Virus record (IMG/VR): IMGVR_UViG_3300043754_000023
Location: 1 to 40,668 of that record
Origin: a virus
Lineage: Duplodnaviria; Caudoviricetes
Reading direction: 5' to 3' (one strand)
Length of the DNA stretch: 40,668 nucleotides
Positions 6,041 through 28,736 of this stretch are shown here, one piece after another (the first letter of the stretch is position 1; each line of letters begins with the position of its first letter). A program made the translations under genes and the position numbers. The notes beneath the pieces were generated by a model. That model made no database searches, was not told the DNA's origin, and worked only from the letters and a program-made list of their open reading frames with translations.

Positions 6041-6511
6041 TCAGCCCCCTCTCTTCGCCCTACTGGCCATCATCTGTTCGAGTTGGTTCTGAGCCTTCAC
6101 TTCGGCCACGCCAAGGCGTGTCCTGTCTGCCGGCGTCAGGCCGAGAGATGCCGCCATTGAGGCAATCTCCTTCTCAATGGTCGACAGCATGCCAACCAAG
6201 GGGTTGGCGTAGGCGTAGCCCTTGTCCGTGTAGAGAACGGGATCGGAAGCGGCTAGACGCCGCTTGAAGTCGGCTCGCTGATCAATCTTCTCGCACATGA
6301 TGACCATGAATGGTCGATCGCTTTCGGCGATCCATTGGCACTGGGACGTGATGAGTTCATATACGGCCGATCCATCGGCCTCAAGATGATCCGGCGCACT
6401 CGCCGTGACCGGAACGACAGTTCCGACTTCCTTGAGATCCGGGAGCGGTCTGCGACCGGGATTTCCCCGCTTTCGCTTCCGCTCCGCAGGTTGCGGAGGT
6501 GGTCCAGGCAT
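6041..6511 (-). CDS. terS: Terminase small subunit (P27-like)
   Basis: GPPP..GNPG.R N-terminus, NPLV and LGLTPADR motifs; AAGGAGGT RBS before ATG 6511. Confidence 0.9.
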   Translation of the reverse strand: MPGPPPQPAERKRKRGNPGRRPLPDLKEVGTVVPVTASAPDHLEADGSAVYELITSQCQWIAESDRPFMVIMCEKIDQRADFKRRLAASDPVLYTDKGYAYANPLVGMLSTIEKEIASMAASLGLTPADRTRLGVAEVKAQNQLEQMMASRAKRGG

Positions 6512-6544
6512 GGTTATGCAGACCTCCTTTCCGCTGGTCACAGC

Positions 6545-6825: not shown

Positions 6826-7005
6826 ATGGGGGTCGTGCAGAACGCAGCCCTGCTGCGGACACTGGACAACGCCAGCAACAGGGAGGCAGAGCTACTGACT
6901 GCCTTACTGGCAGAGCAGCAGCAGACCAACCACCTGCTGGCACAGCTCATACACATGCTGAGCCGACAGGCTCTGCCCAGTACCACATCCTGGGGACGCT
7001 CCTAG
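6826..7005 (+). CDS. Small helical protein oriented opposite to the late operon
   Basis: GGGGAGG RBS before ATG 6826; TATAGT upstream; amphipathic LLAEQQQTNHLLAQL. Confidence 0.6.
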   Translation: MGVVQNAALLRTLDNASNREAELLTALLAEQQQTNHLLAQLIHMLSRQALPSTTSWGRS

Positions 7006-7337
7006 GCGTCCTTCTTCCTACTGTTGCAGGAGCGGCAAAGCACACGGAGATTGGCGGCACTGTCAGTGCCGCCTTTCTTCTTGGGAACAATGTGGTCAAC
7101 AGTCAGATCCCCTGAAACATGACCAGGGGTCAAATAACCTGGGCACCAGTCGCCATAAAGAGCCTTGTGTCTGGCAATCATCTGCGCCGCTGTACGGCGC
7201 CAGGAGGACGTGTAGCCACGTGCGGTAGAAGAACCACGCAGTTGCTCCTGTCGGGCCGCATACGCGGCCTGGTGGCTGTCACAGCGGCTCTTGTTGGCCG
7301 TGAGGCGGCCACAGTCCAGGCAGGGACGCTTAGGCAT
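7002..7337 (-). CDS. HNH endonuclease (terminase-associated)
   Basis: CxxC N-terminus, ARGY...W, VDHIVPK..GG...NLRVLCRSCNSRK. Confidence 0.92.
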   Translation of the reverse strand: MPKRPCLDCGRLTANKSRCDSHQAAYAARQEQLRGSSTARGYTSSWRRTAAQMIARHKALYGDWCPGYLTPGHVSGDLTVDHIVPKKKGGTDSAANLRVLCRSCNSRKKDA

Positions 7338-7473
7338 CGTCGTCTACGCCTAGATGCTGCTTGAGCTCATCACGCACCTTGCGAAGGTGCCGGTTATGGA
7401 AGACAACCACACAGGCGCCTGTGATGGCGCTGGCGACTAGGTTGGGCAGTACCTGCCCGATGAACCACGTCAT
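7330..7473 (-). CDS. Small membrane protein (47 aa, absent from ORF track)
   Basis: MTWFIGQVLPNLVASAITGACVVVFH...; overlaps both neighbours. Confidence 0.65.
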   Translation of the reverse strand: MTWFIGQVLPNLVASAITGACVVVFHNRHLRKVRDELKQHLGVDDDA

Positions 7474-7964
7474 GACGACTTGAGACTGTAGAGACAGCCT
7501 GGCGTGACATAGCCAGGCCAGCGACCGTCATGAAAGAGCTCCACACCGTTCTGCCTGTAGCAGTAGTCAACAAGCTGAGAACAGATCATGTGCTTGCTGG
7601 AAGCAACGTAGCGCTTCAGAAGGCTGTTTCCAGGGATGTGGAGCGTATGAGCCGCGATAGCGGCGTAGTCGGCAAAGCTGTAGGGAGTTCCTACGAGACT
7701 CAGCGCTGTAAGCGCGATTCCTCGACGCTGAGCGTCGGTAAGGTCGACCCAACCGGTCGACCAGAGGATGTCATCGTATTCGGAGACTGGAGAGAGCTTC
7801 GCTCCTCCGGGCTCAGCTTCTATGAGCTGATCTCCACCGACATAAATGACTGCATGCTCATAATCGGCGAACTTGTCGCCGTTGAGCCATTGACCGAATC
7901 GAATGAGGCGCCCAGCGGCGCCGTTCATCCTTACAAGACCAAAATCCCCGATCTCGGGCAACAC
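7470..7964 (-). CDS. Permuted papain-like NlpC/P60 protein (YaeF/YiiX-like)
   Basis: His (EHAVIYVG) precedes G.PY and Cys (ICSQLV); GGAGGTGA RBS. Confidence 0.85.
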   Translation of the reverse strand: MLPEIGDFGLVRMNGAAGRLIRFGQWLNGDKFADYEHAVIYVGGDQLIEAEPGGAKLSPVSEYDDILWSTGWVDLTDAQRRGIALTALSLVGTPYSFADYAAIAAHTLHIPGNSLLKRYVASSKHMICSQLVDYCYRQNGVELFHDGRWPGYVTPGCLYSLKSS

Positions 7965-8039
7965 TGATCACCTCCAAATAAGTTGACCCTGCGCTAAGCG
8001 CCAACACGAGCGTTGGCCAATCACCCGTTTACGGGTCAG

Positions 8040-8112
8040 CTCTCCAACCTGGATTCGAACCAGGAACCGACTGGGTAACAACCAGGTGCTCTACCAATTG
8101 AGCTATCGGAGA
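8040..8112 (-). tRNA. tRNA-Asn(GTT)
   Basis: TCTCCGA/TTGGAGA acceptor, GCTC/GAGC D arm, loop TTGTTAC, CCTGG-TTCGAAT-CCAGG T arm, G73; CCA not encoded. Confidence 0.92.
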
Positions 8113-8117
8113 TTGAT

Positions 8118-8180
8118 GGCCTACGGCCTGACTATCAACAGGCAGTAGATGTATCCGCTAAAGCGGGCATAGCGTAGGCC
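8118..8180 (-). ncRNA. Structured RNA module (three-way junction) upstream of tRNA-Asn
   Basis: GGCCTACG/CGTAGGCC stem enclosing CCGC-TTTA-GCGG and GCCTG-N8-CAGGC hairpins; strand inferred from context. Confidence 0.5.
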
Positions 8181-8197
8181 GTTGGTTAACCAACCAA

Positions 8198-8253
8198 TTG
8201 ATGGCATCGGATTGAGCATCCTCATTTAAGGCGGCACTGCTAGCCGCCACCAA
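8198..8253 (-). ncRNA. Unknown RNA motif, copy B'
   Basis: GGCGGC-TAGCAGT-GCCGCC-TTAAATGA-GGAT-GCTCA-ATCC. Confidence 0.55.
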
Positions 8254-8254
8254 G

Positions 8255-8359
8255 TTCGGTCGATGGGATTCGAACCCATGGTGAGTCACGGCGCCCAAAG
8301 GCGCCTACACCTCACACCGCCTTCGCGGCGGTCGCATTTGGCCTCTCTGCCACAACCGA
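8255..8359 (-). tRNA. Atypical tRNA-like gene (anticodon CGA, nominally Ser) with a 35-nt variable arm
   Basis: TCGGTTG/CGACCGA acceptor, GCA/TGC D stem, ACCGC/GCGGT anticodon stem, ATGGG-TTCGAAT-CCCAT T arm. Confidence 0.75.
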
Positions 8360-8367
8360 AGATTGCG

Positions 8368-8434
8368 GCTATGGCCGCTGTGTGTACAGACAGTCATTTA
8401 AGCGTCGCACTGCTGCCCAGCGACGCACCATAGC
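8368..8434 (-). ncRNA. Unknown RNA motif, copy B
   Basis: GCTATGGT/GCCATAGC closing stem; GCGTCGC-..AGCAGT-GCGACGC-TTAAATGA-CTGT-N8-ACAG. Confidence 0.55.
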
Positions 8435-8495
8435 GAGTTATGCGTAGGCTGACACGGATCATTTCTCCGTCGCCAAGGCGACTACGCAAAAAGTG

Positions 8496-8587
8496 TTCCC
8501 GTGACCGGGAATCAATCTGGACTACTAGGCGTTGGCCGGAGCACTGGGCCAACGCTGAATCAACAGAGACTCAACCAGTCACGGGAA
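8496..8587 (-). ncRNA. Long irregular hairpin at the 5' end of the RNA cluster
   Basis: 13-bp basal stem TTCCCGTGACTGG/CCGGTCACGGGAA (G-U pair only on the minus strand); apical GCGTTGGCC/GGCCAACGC. Confidence 0.55.
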
Positions 8588-8919
8588 GTTCGTGTGCGCG
8601 CTCACGCGCGTCTTTTAAGAGATATCTCTATAGCGAAGCCCTTCAAGGGCTTCGCCTAATGTCTTTCATTCAATGCCGAAGGCTTATTGCCTTCGGCTTA
8701 TTACTAACTACTCATTGGCGCCCTCAAGGCGCCTTGTTGTCGTTCGGTCGGTCGCTTCGCTCCCTCCCTCACTCTGATGTACATGTCCCTCGGTCTCCGA
8801 TGGGACACAGTCCTGAGTAAAACCTTTGCAAACCGTCATTGACCTGCGTCGATGTGGTCGACGCCAGACTGATCAGTCCCTGTTGTGACTGCCAGCGAGA
8901 GCTCTTGGAAGCTCTCGTA

Positions 8920-25546: not shown

Positions 25547-25906
25547 ATGGCAGTTGAGAAGGGTCAGAAGTACAAGGGCAACCTGTCGGGGAAGGTCTAC
25601 GAGATTCTTTCGGACGTCTTCCAGATGGACGACGTTGACTATGTGGTCTGGCGTGAGCCGTCGCTGCGCGGGGGAAATCCTCAGGTTGACACCGTAGAGA
25701 GCTTTAAGGACTCTTCCCTTTACACCCTGATCCGAGAGCCCAAGTTCAAGGTTGGGGACAAGGTGGCCGCCTATAGCGACAACTGGACTATTGATGCGGT
25801 CAGCTCAAAGGCTGACCCTTATGGAGAGTTTGTCTATATTGGCACGAACCTAGATGGCTACTTCCAGACCATCTATGAGAACTCCATTGCCAAGGCGGCT
25901 GAGTGA
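25547..25906 (+). CDS. Hypothetical protein (small beta domains)
   Basis: AAGGGGG RBS; PKFKVGDKV. Confidence 0.7.
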   Translation: MAVEKGQKYKGNLSGKVYEILSDVFQMDDVDYVVWREPSLRGGNPQVDTVESFKDSSLYTLIREPKFKVGDKVAAYSDNWTIDAVSSKADPYGEFVYIGTNLDGYFQTIYENSIAKAAE

Positions 25907-26625
25907 CTACCATTCCTTCCGTCGACTGGACGGAAATCAGCGAGATTGCCATTAAGGTTGGCCGCAAGGTGGCCAGCCGCTGGCCGGGCATTGATGCCGA
26001 AGACTGCGCTCAGGAAGCGCTGAAGGCCGCTATCGCGCGCCCTGCGCTCATGACTGACAGGCAGGAAGACAAGGGCTTCGTCTTCGCCTTCATGGAGAAG
26101 GTTGCTACCCAGTACGCATCCAATGAGCGGTACGAGTACATGATGCGCTCTGCGCAGTACATCTACACCCCGAAGGAAGTCAGGCGACTCCTTGAGGGAT
26201 TCTGGAATGAGGATGCCCGCTCCGTTCCGGACGGGGAGGATGACCAGATCAATCCGAAAACTGATTCTGCTACCGGCTACCTGGACATGGACTCTGCCAT
26301 GAAGGAGATGCCAGGAGACGATGTATGGCGCCTTCAGCGCCGCTACTTGGATGGCCTTGAGTATCCCAGCCCCGCCGCTCGTAAGGCGGCTGACAGGGCG
26401 GTAGACCGCCTTACGAAGCTCATGAACTACCGCGCCAACGGCGCCGGCCCGGAACGGGGCGTCAGCCCCAAGGAGGTGCGACAGCCCTTCTCTCCGGTTG
26501 TCGTTACCACGATGGCGCCCAAGGCGCCGTACACAGGTGACGTCAGTCGCGCACTGTGGGAGGTGAGGCCCGGAGAGCGGGCCGAGTTCACGACTGCTCG
26601 GAATCGTGACACACGATCCGTATAA
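25903..26625 (+). CDS. Sigma-factor-like/HTH transcription regulator
   Basis: DAEDCAQE region-2-like segment, YIYT..EVR.LL, C-terminal helical region. Confidence 0.6.
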   Translation: MTTIPSVDWTEISEIAIKVGRKVASRWPGIDAEDCAQEALKAAIARPALMTDRQEDKGFVFAFMEKVATQYASNERYEYMMRSAQYIYTPKEVRRLLEGFWNEDARSVPDGEDDQINPKTDSATGYLDMDSAMKEMPGDDVWRLQRRYLDGLEYPSPAARKAADRAVDRLTKLMNYRANGAGPERGVSPKEVRQPFSPVVVTTMAPKAPYTGDVSRALWEVRPGERAEFTTARNRDTRSV

Positions 26626-27792: not shown

Positions 27793-28041
27793 ATGACCAT
27801 CGAAGACACAGAGTACGACCTGGACGGTCCCGGCATGGCCGGCAAGACAAGGGACTTCGGCTCCGTGCCTGAGCTTCTGGCGAAGCTGGAAGGCAAGGTT
27901 GCCATGTACGAGCGCATCGCGCGTGACGCTGCCGAGAAGGCAGGAGACTTCGAGCGGGCCGCTCAGGCGGTCCGCGAGGGATCAAATTCGGTCATTGTCG
28001 GTCGTACTACATACAACCTGCGTGCAGAGGCTACTGACTGA
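27793..28041 (+). CDS. Hypothetical protein
   Basis: TAGCCT -10-like hexamer 6 nt before the ATG (possibly leaderless). Confidence 0.65.
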   Translation: MTIEDTEYDLDGPGMAGKTRDFGSVPELLAKLEGKVAMYERIARDAAEKAGDFERAAQAVREGSNSVIVGRTTYNLRAEATD

Positions 28042-28102
28042 CGGGTAGCCAGCTACCCTGAGCTTGCTCCTTCACCACCGTGACGTAGGAGAAAACTCAA
28101 TC

Positions 28103-28444
28103 ATGACCCAAGCGGACAGCGTCTCTCAGACGCTGGGAAGGTCGCTTGAAGAGACGCCGGGAGCTCCCTCCCGGTCCTTCAGGCCGTTCCCTGCCCCGGC
28201 GTACTCACCCTTCCTGCACACGCCCTCACGGCGTGGCGGGCCCACGGTCCAAGAGGACCCCATCAGCCTGACAGACCCTCTTGAGCACCTTGAACCGGTG
28301 CCTGTTGAGGGGTGCCGCATCTGTGCGGCACTGGGCAGGCAGCGCGCCGAAGCGCGCGAGGCAGGAGACCTCTCGAAGGTCTCTGACTGCAACGTGGAGA
28401 TCTATCTCCACCCCCACCCCAAGAAGCGCCGGGGGCGGGGCTGA
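28103..28444 (+). CDS. Hypothetical protein with CxxC..C..H motif
   Basis: PVEGCRICAAL...SDCNVEI..HPH; start uncertain. Confidence 0.55.
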   Translation: MTQADSVSQTLGRSLEETPGAPSRSFRPFPAPAYSPFLHTPSRRGGPTVQEDPISLTDPLEHLEPVPVEGCRICAALGRQRAEAREAGDLSKVSDCNVEIYLHPHPKKRRGRG

Positions 28445-28683
28445 TGAAGATGGACGACTTCAAAGCCGCCACAGCGGCGGCTGAAGCTGCGGAGAATGCC
28501 CTTCGGGATGGACTCCTTGCTGTGGGAGTCCCGGAGAAGACCCTGGACCAACTCCGGTCAAGGGTCCTGGCCAACGGACGATCCGTTGTCATGGTCGGCT
28601 CTTGGCCGACAGAGGTTGCAGAGAAGGTTGCTGCGGCCCTTGAGATGTCGGCCGCAGTGATGCGGATACCTGAAGACACCTAA
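28444..28683 (+). CDS. Hypothetical protein
   Basis: TGATG overlap; ends at a terminator. Confidence 0.65.
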   Translation: MKMDDFKAATAAAEAAENALRDGLLAVGVPEKTLDQLRSRVLANGRSVVMVGSWPTEVAEKVAAALEMSAAVMRIPEDT

Positions 28684-28688
28684 GCAAC

Positions 28689-28729
28689 AAAAAAGAGGGC
28701 CCCTCCTGCCGACACAGGAGGGGCCTTTT
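28689..28729. terminator. Bidirectional terminator between convergent early and late units
   Basis: A-tract, GGCCCCTCCTG-CCGACA-CAGGAGGGGCC, T-tract. Confidence 0.85.
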
Positions 28730-28736
28730 CGTGTTT

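Follow-up and report, generated by a model that had tools for sequence, protein, structure and literature searches.

Our analyses indicate that a 40,668 base virus record, which was analysed whole and is referred to here as the window, very probably carries a real modular array of small structured RNAs on its minus strand, located directly upstream of an NlpC/P60-like gene and ahead of the packaging genes. The eight units that the original prediction had delineated within 7982-8587 (-) were confirmed from the sequence and from the folding of each unit, but its list of units lacked both a leader hairpin (8591-8610) and a palindrome (8181-8194). The explanation of this array that we favor, at a probability of roughly 0.45, is that a late polycistronic RNA would be cut into small decoy RNAs.

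The window carries the gene set of a temperate phage, including an HK97-type head module, a serine integrase, a DnaE polymerase, and a sigma-like gene. The first gene downstream of the array is the NlpC/P60-like gene (7470-7964 (-), identified by annotation search), followed by genes for HNH (7002-7337) and TerS (6041-6541), and then by TerL, portal, protease, and capsid. A 47 aa ORF with a hydrophobic N-terminus, which falls below the ORF cut-off used, is present between the NlpC/P60-like gene and HNH (7330-7473 (-)) and also in the related locus L042. Relatives of TerS are found in Streptomyces and Actinacidiphila and the DnaE shows 56-57% identity to that of cultured Streptomyces phages; hence, the host is probably a streptomycete.

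In phage phiC31, the equivalent slot has a late lytic promoter that is annotated and, separated from it by 116 nt without annotation, a tRNA-Thr; HNH, cos, and TerS come next. Because this slot has an annotated late promoter in phiC31, the array is presumably transcribed late, and an A/T-rich stretch on the minus strand (8612-8632) is likely to be the core of the late promoter. In L042, L043, L403, L404, L405, and L410, too, the sequence ahead of the leader hairpin is A/T-rich, and no sigma-70 match was found on the minus strand. A phage-encoded sigma-like factor (phrog_354; 25903-26625 (+)) is a candidate activator of the late promoter. The region upstream of the array (8633-8733) contains a run of inverted repeats with a common GAAGG, which is retained in L042 and L403-L410 and may represent an origin, operators, or terminators. 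In the phiC31-type relatives (L050 2760-2870, L055, L061, L062, L072, and L461), an A/T-rich core immediately ahead of the late promoter lies between the two halves of a GTGACG..CGTCAC inverted repeat.

The units of the array are closely packed, with measured spacers of 7, 6, 8, 1, 17, 5, and -1 nt, in agreement with the spacing of about 0-17 nt that had been predicted, and the linkers between them are 66% A/U compared to 41% for the genome. The claim that no credible ORF is present also held, as the sole overlapping ORF of at least 60 aa is located on the plus strand (8440-8820, 126 aa), matches no Pfam family, and is interrupted in a close relative by indels of single bases. The proposed searches with ARAGORN (default) and Rfam (gathering threshold) call only the tRNA-Asn at 8040-8112. 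When run in E-value mode, Rfam also reports a tRNA at 8255-8359 (37.8 bits; gathering 29), the other seven of the nine matches in the array having E-values of at least 0.98, and riboswitch and ribozyme families at E<=10 gave only chance-level matches. Six of the eight units are thus without an Rfam family, the two that can be named being the tRNA-Asn and a Ser-like tRNA look-alike. Among the 28 possible pairs of units only motifs B and B' are related (score 40, 0/1000 shuffles). No meaning could be attached to the common end GCCAUCAAU that had been noted in two modules, the similarity of B' and the three-way junction being within chance (122/1000 shuffles), and no tandem repeat family was found in the array.

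In comparisons with shuffled sequences, the array folds with a z-score of -4.78 on the minus strand and -6.49 on the plus strand, and 8101-8700 is the lowest-z 600 nt block among 406 genome tiles (block mean -3.22), in a genome whose mean z is already negative (-1.15). Energy alone does not choose the strand; the minus strand assignment of the original prediction is set by the tRNAs and by conserved G-U pairs. Every predicted unit, 50-105 nt in length, pairs closed on itself. The folding of the individual units is strong for the long hairpin (z -6.56), the tRNA-like unit (-4.11), the junction (-3.70), and module 2 (-3.05), and weak for B (-0.54), B' (-1.45), and the last module (-1.65), which fold no better than shuffles; the true tRNA-Asn also scores only -1.30. 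A second strong folding block (28001-28700, mean z -3.09) is found at the end of the early genes, where it precedes a bidirectional terminator near 28690-28730 and holds two small ORFs, one of which was checked and had no PHROG or Pfam match.

The leader hairpin at the 5' end of the array (8591-8610 (-), CGCGC..GCGC, identified by stem search) is also found in L042, L043, and L403/404/405/410, and the same six loci carry homologs of module 1 (8496-8587 (-)). This module is a long hairpin whose GAGUC/GAUUC helix carries a UU bulge and whose apical loop reads (G)UGCUCC. Five of its 27 pairs are altered on both sides in an alignment of three sequences, and across seven sequences its basal 18 pairs show 98.4% of cells paired with 8 double-change cells, whereas slid alignments used as a control gave 25-59% paired. 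The UU bulge, the GAGUC/GAUUC helix, and the UGCUCC loop are present in all seven sequences, though their length varies from approximately 65 to 125 nt. A search for antisense targets of the GUGCUCC loop gave a null result (10 GGAGCAC sites vs. 8.4 expected).

Module 2 (8441-8488 (-)) consists of a closing stem around a predicted small pseudoknot, in which a 3 bp GUC/GAC stem crosses a UGGC/GUCA stem, together with a GGA/UCC hairpin. Three of its 14 pairs show double changes. The short stem (variants GUC/GAC, GCU/AGC, and GUU/AGC) is possible in five of six sequences, and the crossing helix is 100% paired in all six, with one double change only and 83 of 500 shuffles scoring as high. We infer that these two helices would coexist as a small pseudoknot. 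A covariance model of this module recovered only its own six training sequences from 53 sources and missed a diverged unit in L405; in 151 genomes it gave two weak hits (approximately 24 bits) in GC-rich DNA without tRNAs, which were judged to be due to chance.

Motif B (8368-8434 (-)) was recognized from its sequence and its similarity to B' and has a predicted three-way fold made up of a UGGU/GCCA closing core, a P1 loop ending in GCAGU, a UUAAAUGA linker, and P2. Motif B' (8198-8253 (-)) has homologs in L043 and in the soil contigs X2 and X3, that in L043 sharing 94% identity, and a G-C pair of P1 has become C-G there, a compensatory change. A 3 bp GCA/UGY loop-loop pairing is predicted in both motifs from sequence alone. 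A B' model built from two sequences found only these two in 91 sources and did not detect motif B. Chromosomal templates for B (401 genomes) or module 2 (151 genomes) were not found. The original prediction counted an absence of covariation among the findings that would speak against it; compensatory changes were found in modules 1, 2, and B', in counts that rest on 3-7 related sequences, and the alignments indicate that the array is partly under structural selection.

The unit at 8255-8359 (-) has a minimum free energy structure that is a cloverleaf with D and T arms, a CGA at 8325-8323, a 35 nt variable arm (8315-8281), A73, and no encoded CCA. Its anticodon loop (C-G-CGA-A-G) has G rather than U at position 33, and default ARAGORN makes no call. 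The discriminator identity of tRNA-Ser is G73, from which the A73 of this unit departs. Owing to G33, A73, and the 35 nt arm, this look-alike is, as judged from its sequence, unlikely to be a normal decoder. In X2, the look-alike and B' together differ at only 2 of 162 nt, compared to 28 of 345 in the next gene (Fisher p 0.001), an identity that may be due to recent exchange and not to selection. The tRNA-Asn(GUU) (8040-8112 (-); ARAGORN, Rfam 64.4 bits) has U32/C38 and no encoded CCA, and its nearest match observed is the tRNA-Asn of phage Rowa (84%). The remaining units are a three-way junction module (8118-8180 (-)) with a possible CUAU/AUAG pseudoknot and a last multi-hairpin module (7982-8040 (-)), the least supported of the units; neither has a significant match in 27 related arrays and both are missing from X2/X3. 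The perfect 14 bp palindrome (8181-8194) has counterparts in many related arrays, which perfect palindromes terminate (cluster 2, 7 arrays).

The original prediction of a modular small RNA cassette is supported both by this covariation and by the clean loss and swapping of modules in a close relative. The contigs of this relative, X2 and X3, come from two soil runs and, as they share the same variants, represent one genotype. In these contigs position 7978 is joined to 8199, so that the palindrome, junction, tRNA-Asn, and last module are dropped, and 8361-8439 (motif B) is replaced by 73 other letters with its neighbors kept. Modules 1 and 2 are common to the L042 and L043 arrays; a tRNA-like unit and a tRNA-Trp complete that of L042, and another unit and B' that of L043. 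Searches of IMG/VR with DNA patterns gave 49 hits of which one was true (L043), 30 hits of which two were true (L042 and L043), and, in another search, 0 hits. A single scan of metagenome data with the HNH query gave no new array of the window type among the matches listed. When the array was compared by BLAST with 50,697 phage records, only tRNAs matched; BLAST of the L404 array against phage records found nothing, and the window's own modules had no sequence match in cultured phages, including Shawty, Rowa, Shaeky, Shady, and phiC31.

A wider family of phages, with TerL 70-79% identical, fills the same slot in a similar manner. Most of 27 related arrays, the limits of which were set by hand with loci too short to reach the slot excluded, mix tRNAs, tRNAs with odd loops, and recurrent unnamed modules, and Rfam on 13 related array loci identified only tRNAs. 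Calls of tRNAs cover 6957 of 17052 nt (41%) in 28 arrays, the window included. Among 92 relaxed ARAGORN calls, 14 are without a 3 nt anticodon (some of them miscalls, as for the look-alike of the window), and U33 is missing from 13 of the remaining 78; hence, non-decoding look-alikes appear to be routine cargo. Units resembling tRNAs but without a D stem were observed in L056, L058, L061, and L214.

BLAST clustering of 26 arrays identified recurrent non-tRNA modules, the largest present in 15 and 10 arrays. Module Z, approximately 110 nt long and without an Rfam match, has AGUA/GAA internal loops, a predicted loop-loop pairing, and double changes in 7 of 17 pairs (9 sequences); it is circularly permuted in L045 and is joined to a T-arm in L045 and L068. 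Arrays are also present in some prophages, viz. L122 and 3 of 16 regions upstream of TerS-related prophage genes (L387 and the near-identical L389/L390). The other 13 regions show none, which indicates that the array is confined to some lineages. The cultured phages Rowa, Shawty, Shaeky, and Shady likewise carry arrays, in which the non-tRNA modules are unannotated. In Shaeky (MT701595.1, L459 1768-1849), an unannotated 82 nt tag-less tmRNA (59.3 bits; gathering 47) is found inside the tRNA array. Small H-type pseudoknots with A-rich linkers were observed in L044 (3621-3651 and 3756-3819), L057, and L075; by eye we take them to resemble preQ1/SAM-II or type III antitoxin folds, and Rfam on the L044 and L057 loci gave no match.

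In the explanation that we favor, a late promoter near 8612-8632 would give a single precursor that begins with the leader hairpin. The two cloverleafs, both of which keep acceptor and T arms without an encoded CCA, would be cut by RNase P and a 3' tRNA nuclease, enzymes of tRNA processing, and the A/U-rich linkers by a single-strand endonuclease. The self-closing folds would then persist as RNAs of 50-105 nt and serve as decoys or mimics, occupying host proteins that bind RNA in defence or translation. The late position of the cassette that had been proposed is supported by analogy with phiC31, but the proposal that tRNA processing is the general means of release is not: the L043 array has four units without any tRNA, so that tRNAs are not required, and modules 1, 2, and B, with no tRNA between them, could not be released by tRNA processing alone. 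We consider release as separate RNAs to be probable, and give a decoy or mimic function somewhat less than an even chance. The decoy reading is suggested by the turnover of the cargo, which is like that of anti-defence genes, by the look-alike that is unlikely to decode normally, by the odd-loop tRNAs in the slot of relatives, and by the mini-tmRNA of Shaeky, a nameable passenger of the slot that is a cut-down host RNA. When compared with one genome of the Streptomyces family, the seven window units other than tRNA-Asn showed no resemblance to its rRNA operon or to its RNase P, tmRNA, and SRP RNAs, and the mini-tmRNA, used as a positive control, did match. Phage tRNAs have been proposed as a counter to host anticodon nucleases (PMC10264068, in part). 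A bolder form of this reading, which we regard as unlikely, is that the slot is an RNA-only counter-defence island in which each 50-100 nt module is a separate inhibitor that either acts as a decoy of a tRNA nuclease or an RNA-sensing immune protein or, as an aptamer, soaks up an immune signalling nucleotide; if so, streptomycete phages shuffle RNA cassettes as others shuffle small anti-defence proteins.

An unlikely alternative is that the array is a cis-acting structured leader of the late mRNA which provides roadblocks, antitermination, or translational control of the packaging genes, with the tRNAs as passengers. Modules 1 and 2 keep to the 5' end (in all seven arrays and in six of the seven, respectively), which is compatible with such a role: in the window and its relatives the leader hairpin and module 1 always come first, and module 2 is usually next. 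The phiC31-type arrays also always begin with a leader and a CUCC-loop hairpin (as a loose motif in 26 of 27), and no terminator-like site was found on the minus strand between the array and the downstream gene, the single minus strand hit inside the array (8511-8496) being weak. A leader of this kind is difficult to reconcile with downstream modules that come and go freely and with the arrays of L068/L122 and L071, which end in a terminator-like hairpin before genes on the opposite strand. Slightly less likely again is that some of the units act as aptamers, soaking up metabolites or nucleotide signals, or cut the array as self-cleaving ribozymes of a new type. Consistent with this are the pseudoknots predicted in module 2 and B/B', which are compact and have invariant unpaired bases (in B/B', the linker and GCAGU), and the theta ribozymes that trim phage tRNAs elsewhere (PMC10879173). 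Type II hammerheads above the Rfam cut-off are also present upstream of the array on the opposite strand, between early-strand genes, in 4/4 relatives of the DnaE clade (L403 3885-3948, L404 2662-2725, L405 2690-2754, and L410 3097-3160, all (+)); none was found in the window. The chance-level matches of the array to riboswitch and ribozyme families argue against this alternative, and so does the pairing of the two ends of the RNA with one another in B' and the last module, which lie 3' of the cloverleafs, as this is unlike the HDV fold. A rough HDV-like and hammerhead descriptor, used without a positive control, gave 0 hits in 26 arrays.

It is improbable that the tRNAs alone matter, replacing nuclease-cut host tRNAs or supplementing codons, with the other units being neutral cargo or decayed tRNA pieces that would be kept folded to allow processing. 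The weak folding scores of B, B', and the last module and the dominance of tRNA-Leu(UAG) (18) and tRNA-Asn(GUU) (13) among the 92 calls are in keeping with this; against it stand the invariance of unpaired loop and linker bases while stems covary, the retention in L043 of four non-tRNA units with zero tRNAs, and the recurrence of module Z in 10 metagenomic arrays (e.g., L074 4021-4133) and four cultured phages (Shawty, Shaeky, Shady, and Rowa). Very improbable is the suggestion that B/B' and the A-rich pseudoknots of the relatives mimic type III antitoxin RNAs, as does the pseudo-ToxI of phiTE. The combination of hairpin, A-rich linker, and loop pairing in B/B' is one that we take to resemble the ToxI pseudoknot plan. 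No Rfam match to ToxI was obtained, and the tandem repeats of an approximately 36 nt pseudoknot that characterize ToxI are absent from the window. In 401 Streptomyces genomes a motif B pattern was matched 9 times, compared to 5 for the reversed control, and the full fold was present in none of these matches. A search for ToxN (PF13958) was silent in all 201 genomes and in the control genomes alike. RNA mimicry of ToxI is itself established (PMC3475682, in part). The view that the array is one large ornate RNA of the GOLLD/ROOL type with embedded tRNAs, which the original prediction had allowed for, has an equally slender chance and is largely refuted by the independent gain, loss, and swapping of modules among relatives. 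The dense structure of the array and a 10 nt complement between module 1 and the last module are in its favor, and GOLLD and ROOL do occur close to phage tRNA islands (10.1101/2024.12.08.627333, in part), but the units are self-closing, no GOLLD or ROOL model of Rfam matches, and no single long fold is conserved.

Several known phage systems are comparable to the array as we interpret it. The TLD-only tmRNA of mycobacteriophage DS6A is a phage-borne, cut-down mimic of a host RNA, and a comparable RNA is present in the slot of Shaeky but absent from the window, where there is no ARAGORN or Rfam call of a tmRNA and no similarity to host tmRNA. A molecule similar to that of Shaeky is reported to inhibit tmRNA (PMC4131195 and PMC11915505, both in part). 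The pseudo-ToxI of phiTE is a non-coding phage pseudoknot RNA that disarms a defence by mimicry (PMC3475682, in part), but it consists of tandem near-identical repeats of a known antitoxin whereas the window units are dissimilar and have no known template. GOLLD, ROOL, manA, and theta ribozymes are likewise structured phage RNAs beside tRNA genes; the window units differ in being independent, 50-105 nt long, and without an Rfam match, and no HDV-like fold was seen. We found no account of these modules in the literature surveyed, the scope of which did not extend to subscription papers such as the original work on the phiC31 cos region. The supplementary tables of PMC10690425 list 10,006 candidate RNAs, most of them from IMG/VR, and may include some of the window modules.

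Further precedents are provided by T4 and phiC31. The RNAC and RNAD of T4 (species 1 and 2) are non-tRNA small RNAs from a phage tRNA region whose role is unknown (PMC3014915, in part), and the window array similarly has non-tRNA, non-coding units in a tRNA region, a likeness of arrangement. It differs in having six non-tRNA units which are interchangeable across a phage family and whose processing is predicted. As T4 has this same kind of arrangement (PMC3014915, in part), the description of the array as an undescribed system was overstated; what is new here is several uncatalogued RNA folds in a known kind of arrangement. Such unnamed RNAs of phage tRNA regions have been without a known role for decades, and in the present family a single slot provides many units that are compact, covary, and can be interchanged. 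Should these prove to be decoys or sponges, anti-defence factors would gain a class made of RNA only, and new small RNA folds would be added as well. The phiC31 locus (Lomovskayavirus; Shawty, Rowa, Shaeky, and Shady) occupies the same slot upstream of the HNH and terminase genes and shares with the window a leader, a first hairpin whose loop is CUCC-rich and whose GAG helix has a UU bulge, and unannotated modules between tRNAs; the bulged helix is, by eye, of opposite polarity to that of the window, and the window TerL is only 39% identical to that of phiC31. The conserved leader (CCGCGCA..GGCGG) and first hairpin of phiC31 (L461 1570-1703) and 26 other arrays are unannotated in phiC31, phiBT1, and TG1, and the CUCUCUCC loop of this hairpin resembles the 3' end of 16S rRNA (CACCUCC). 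As the slot is present in phiC31 and in other cultured Streptomyces phages, the role of such RNAs is directly testable.
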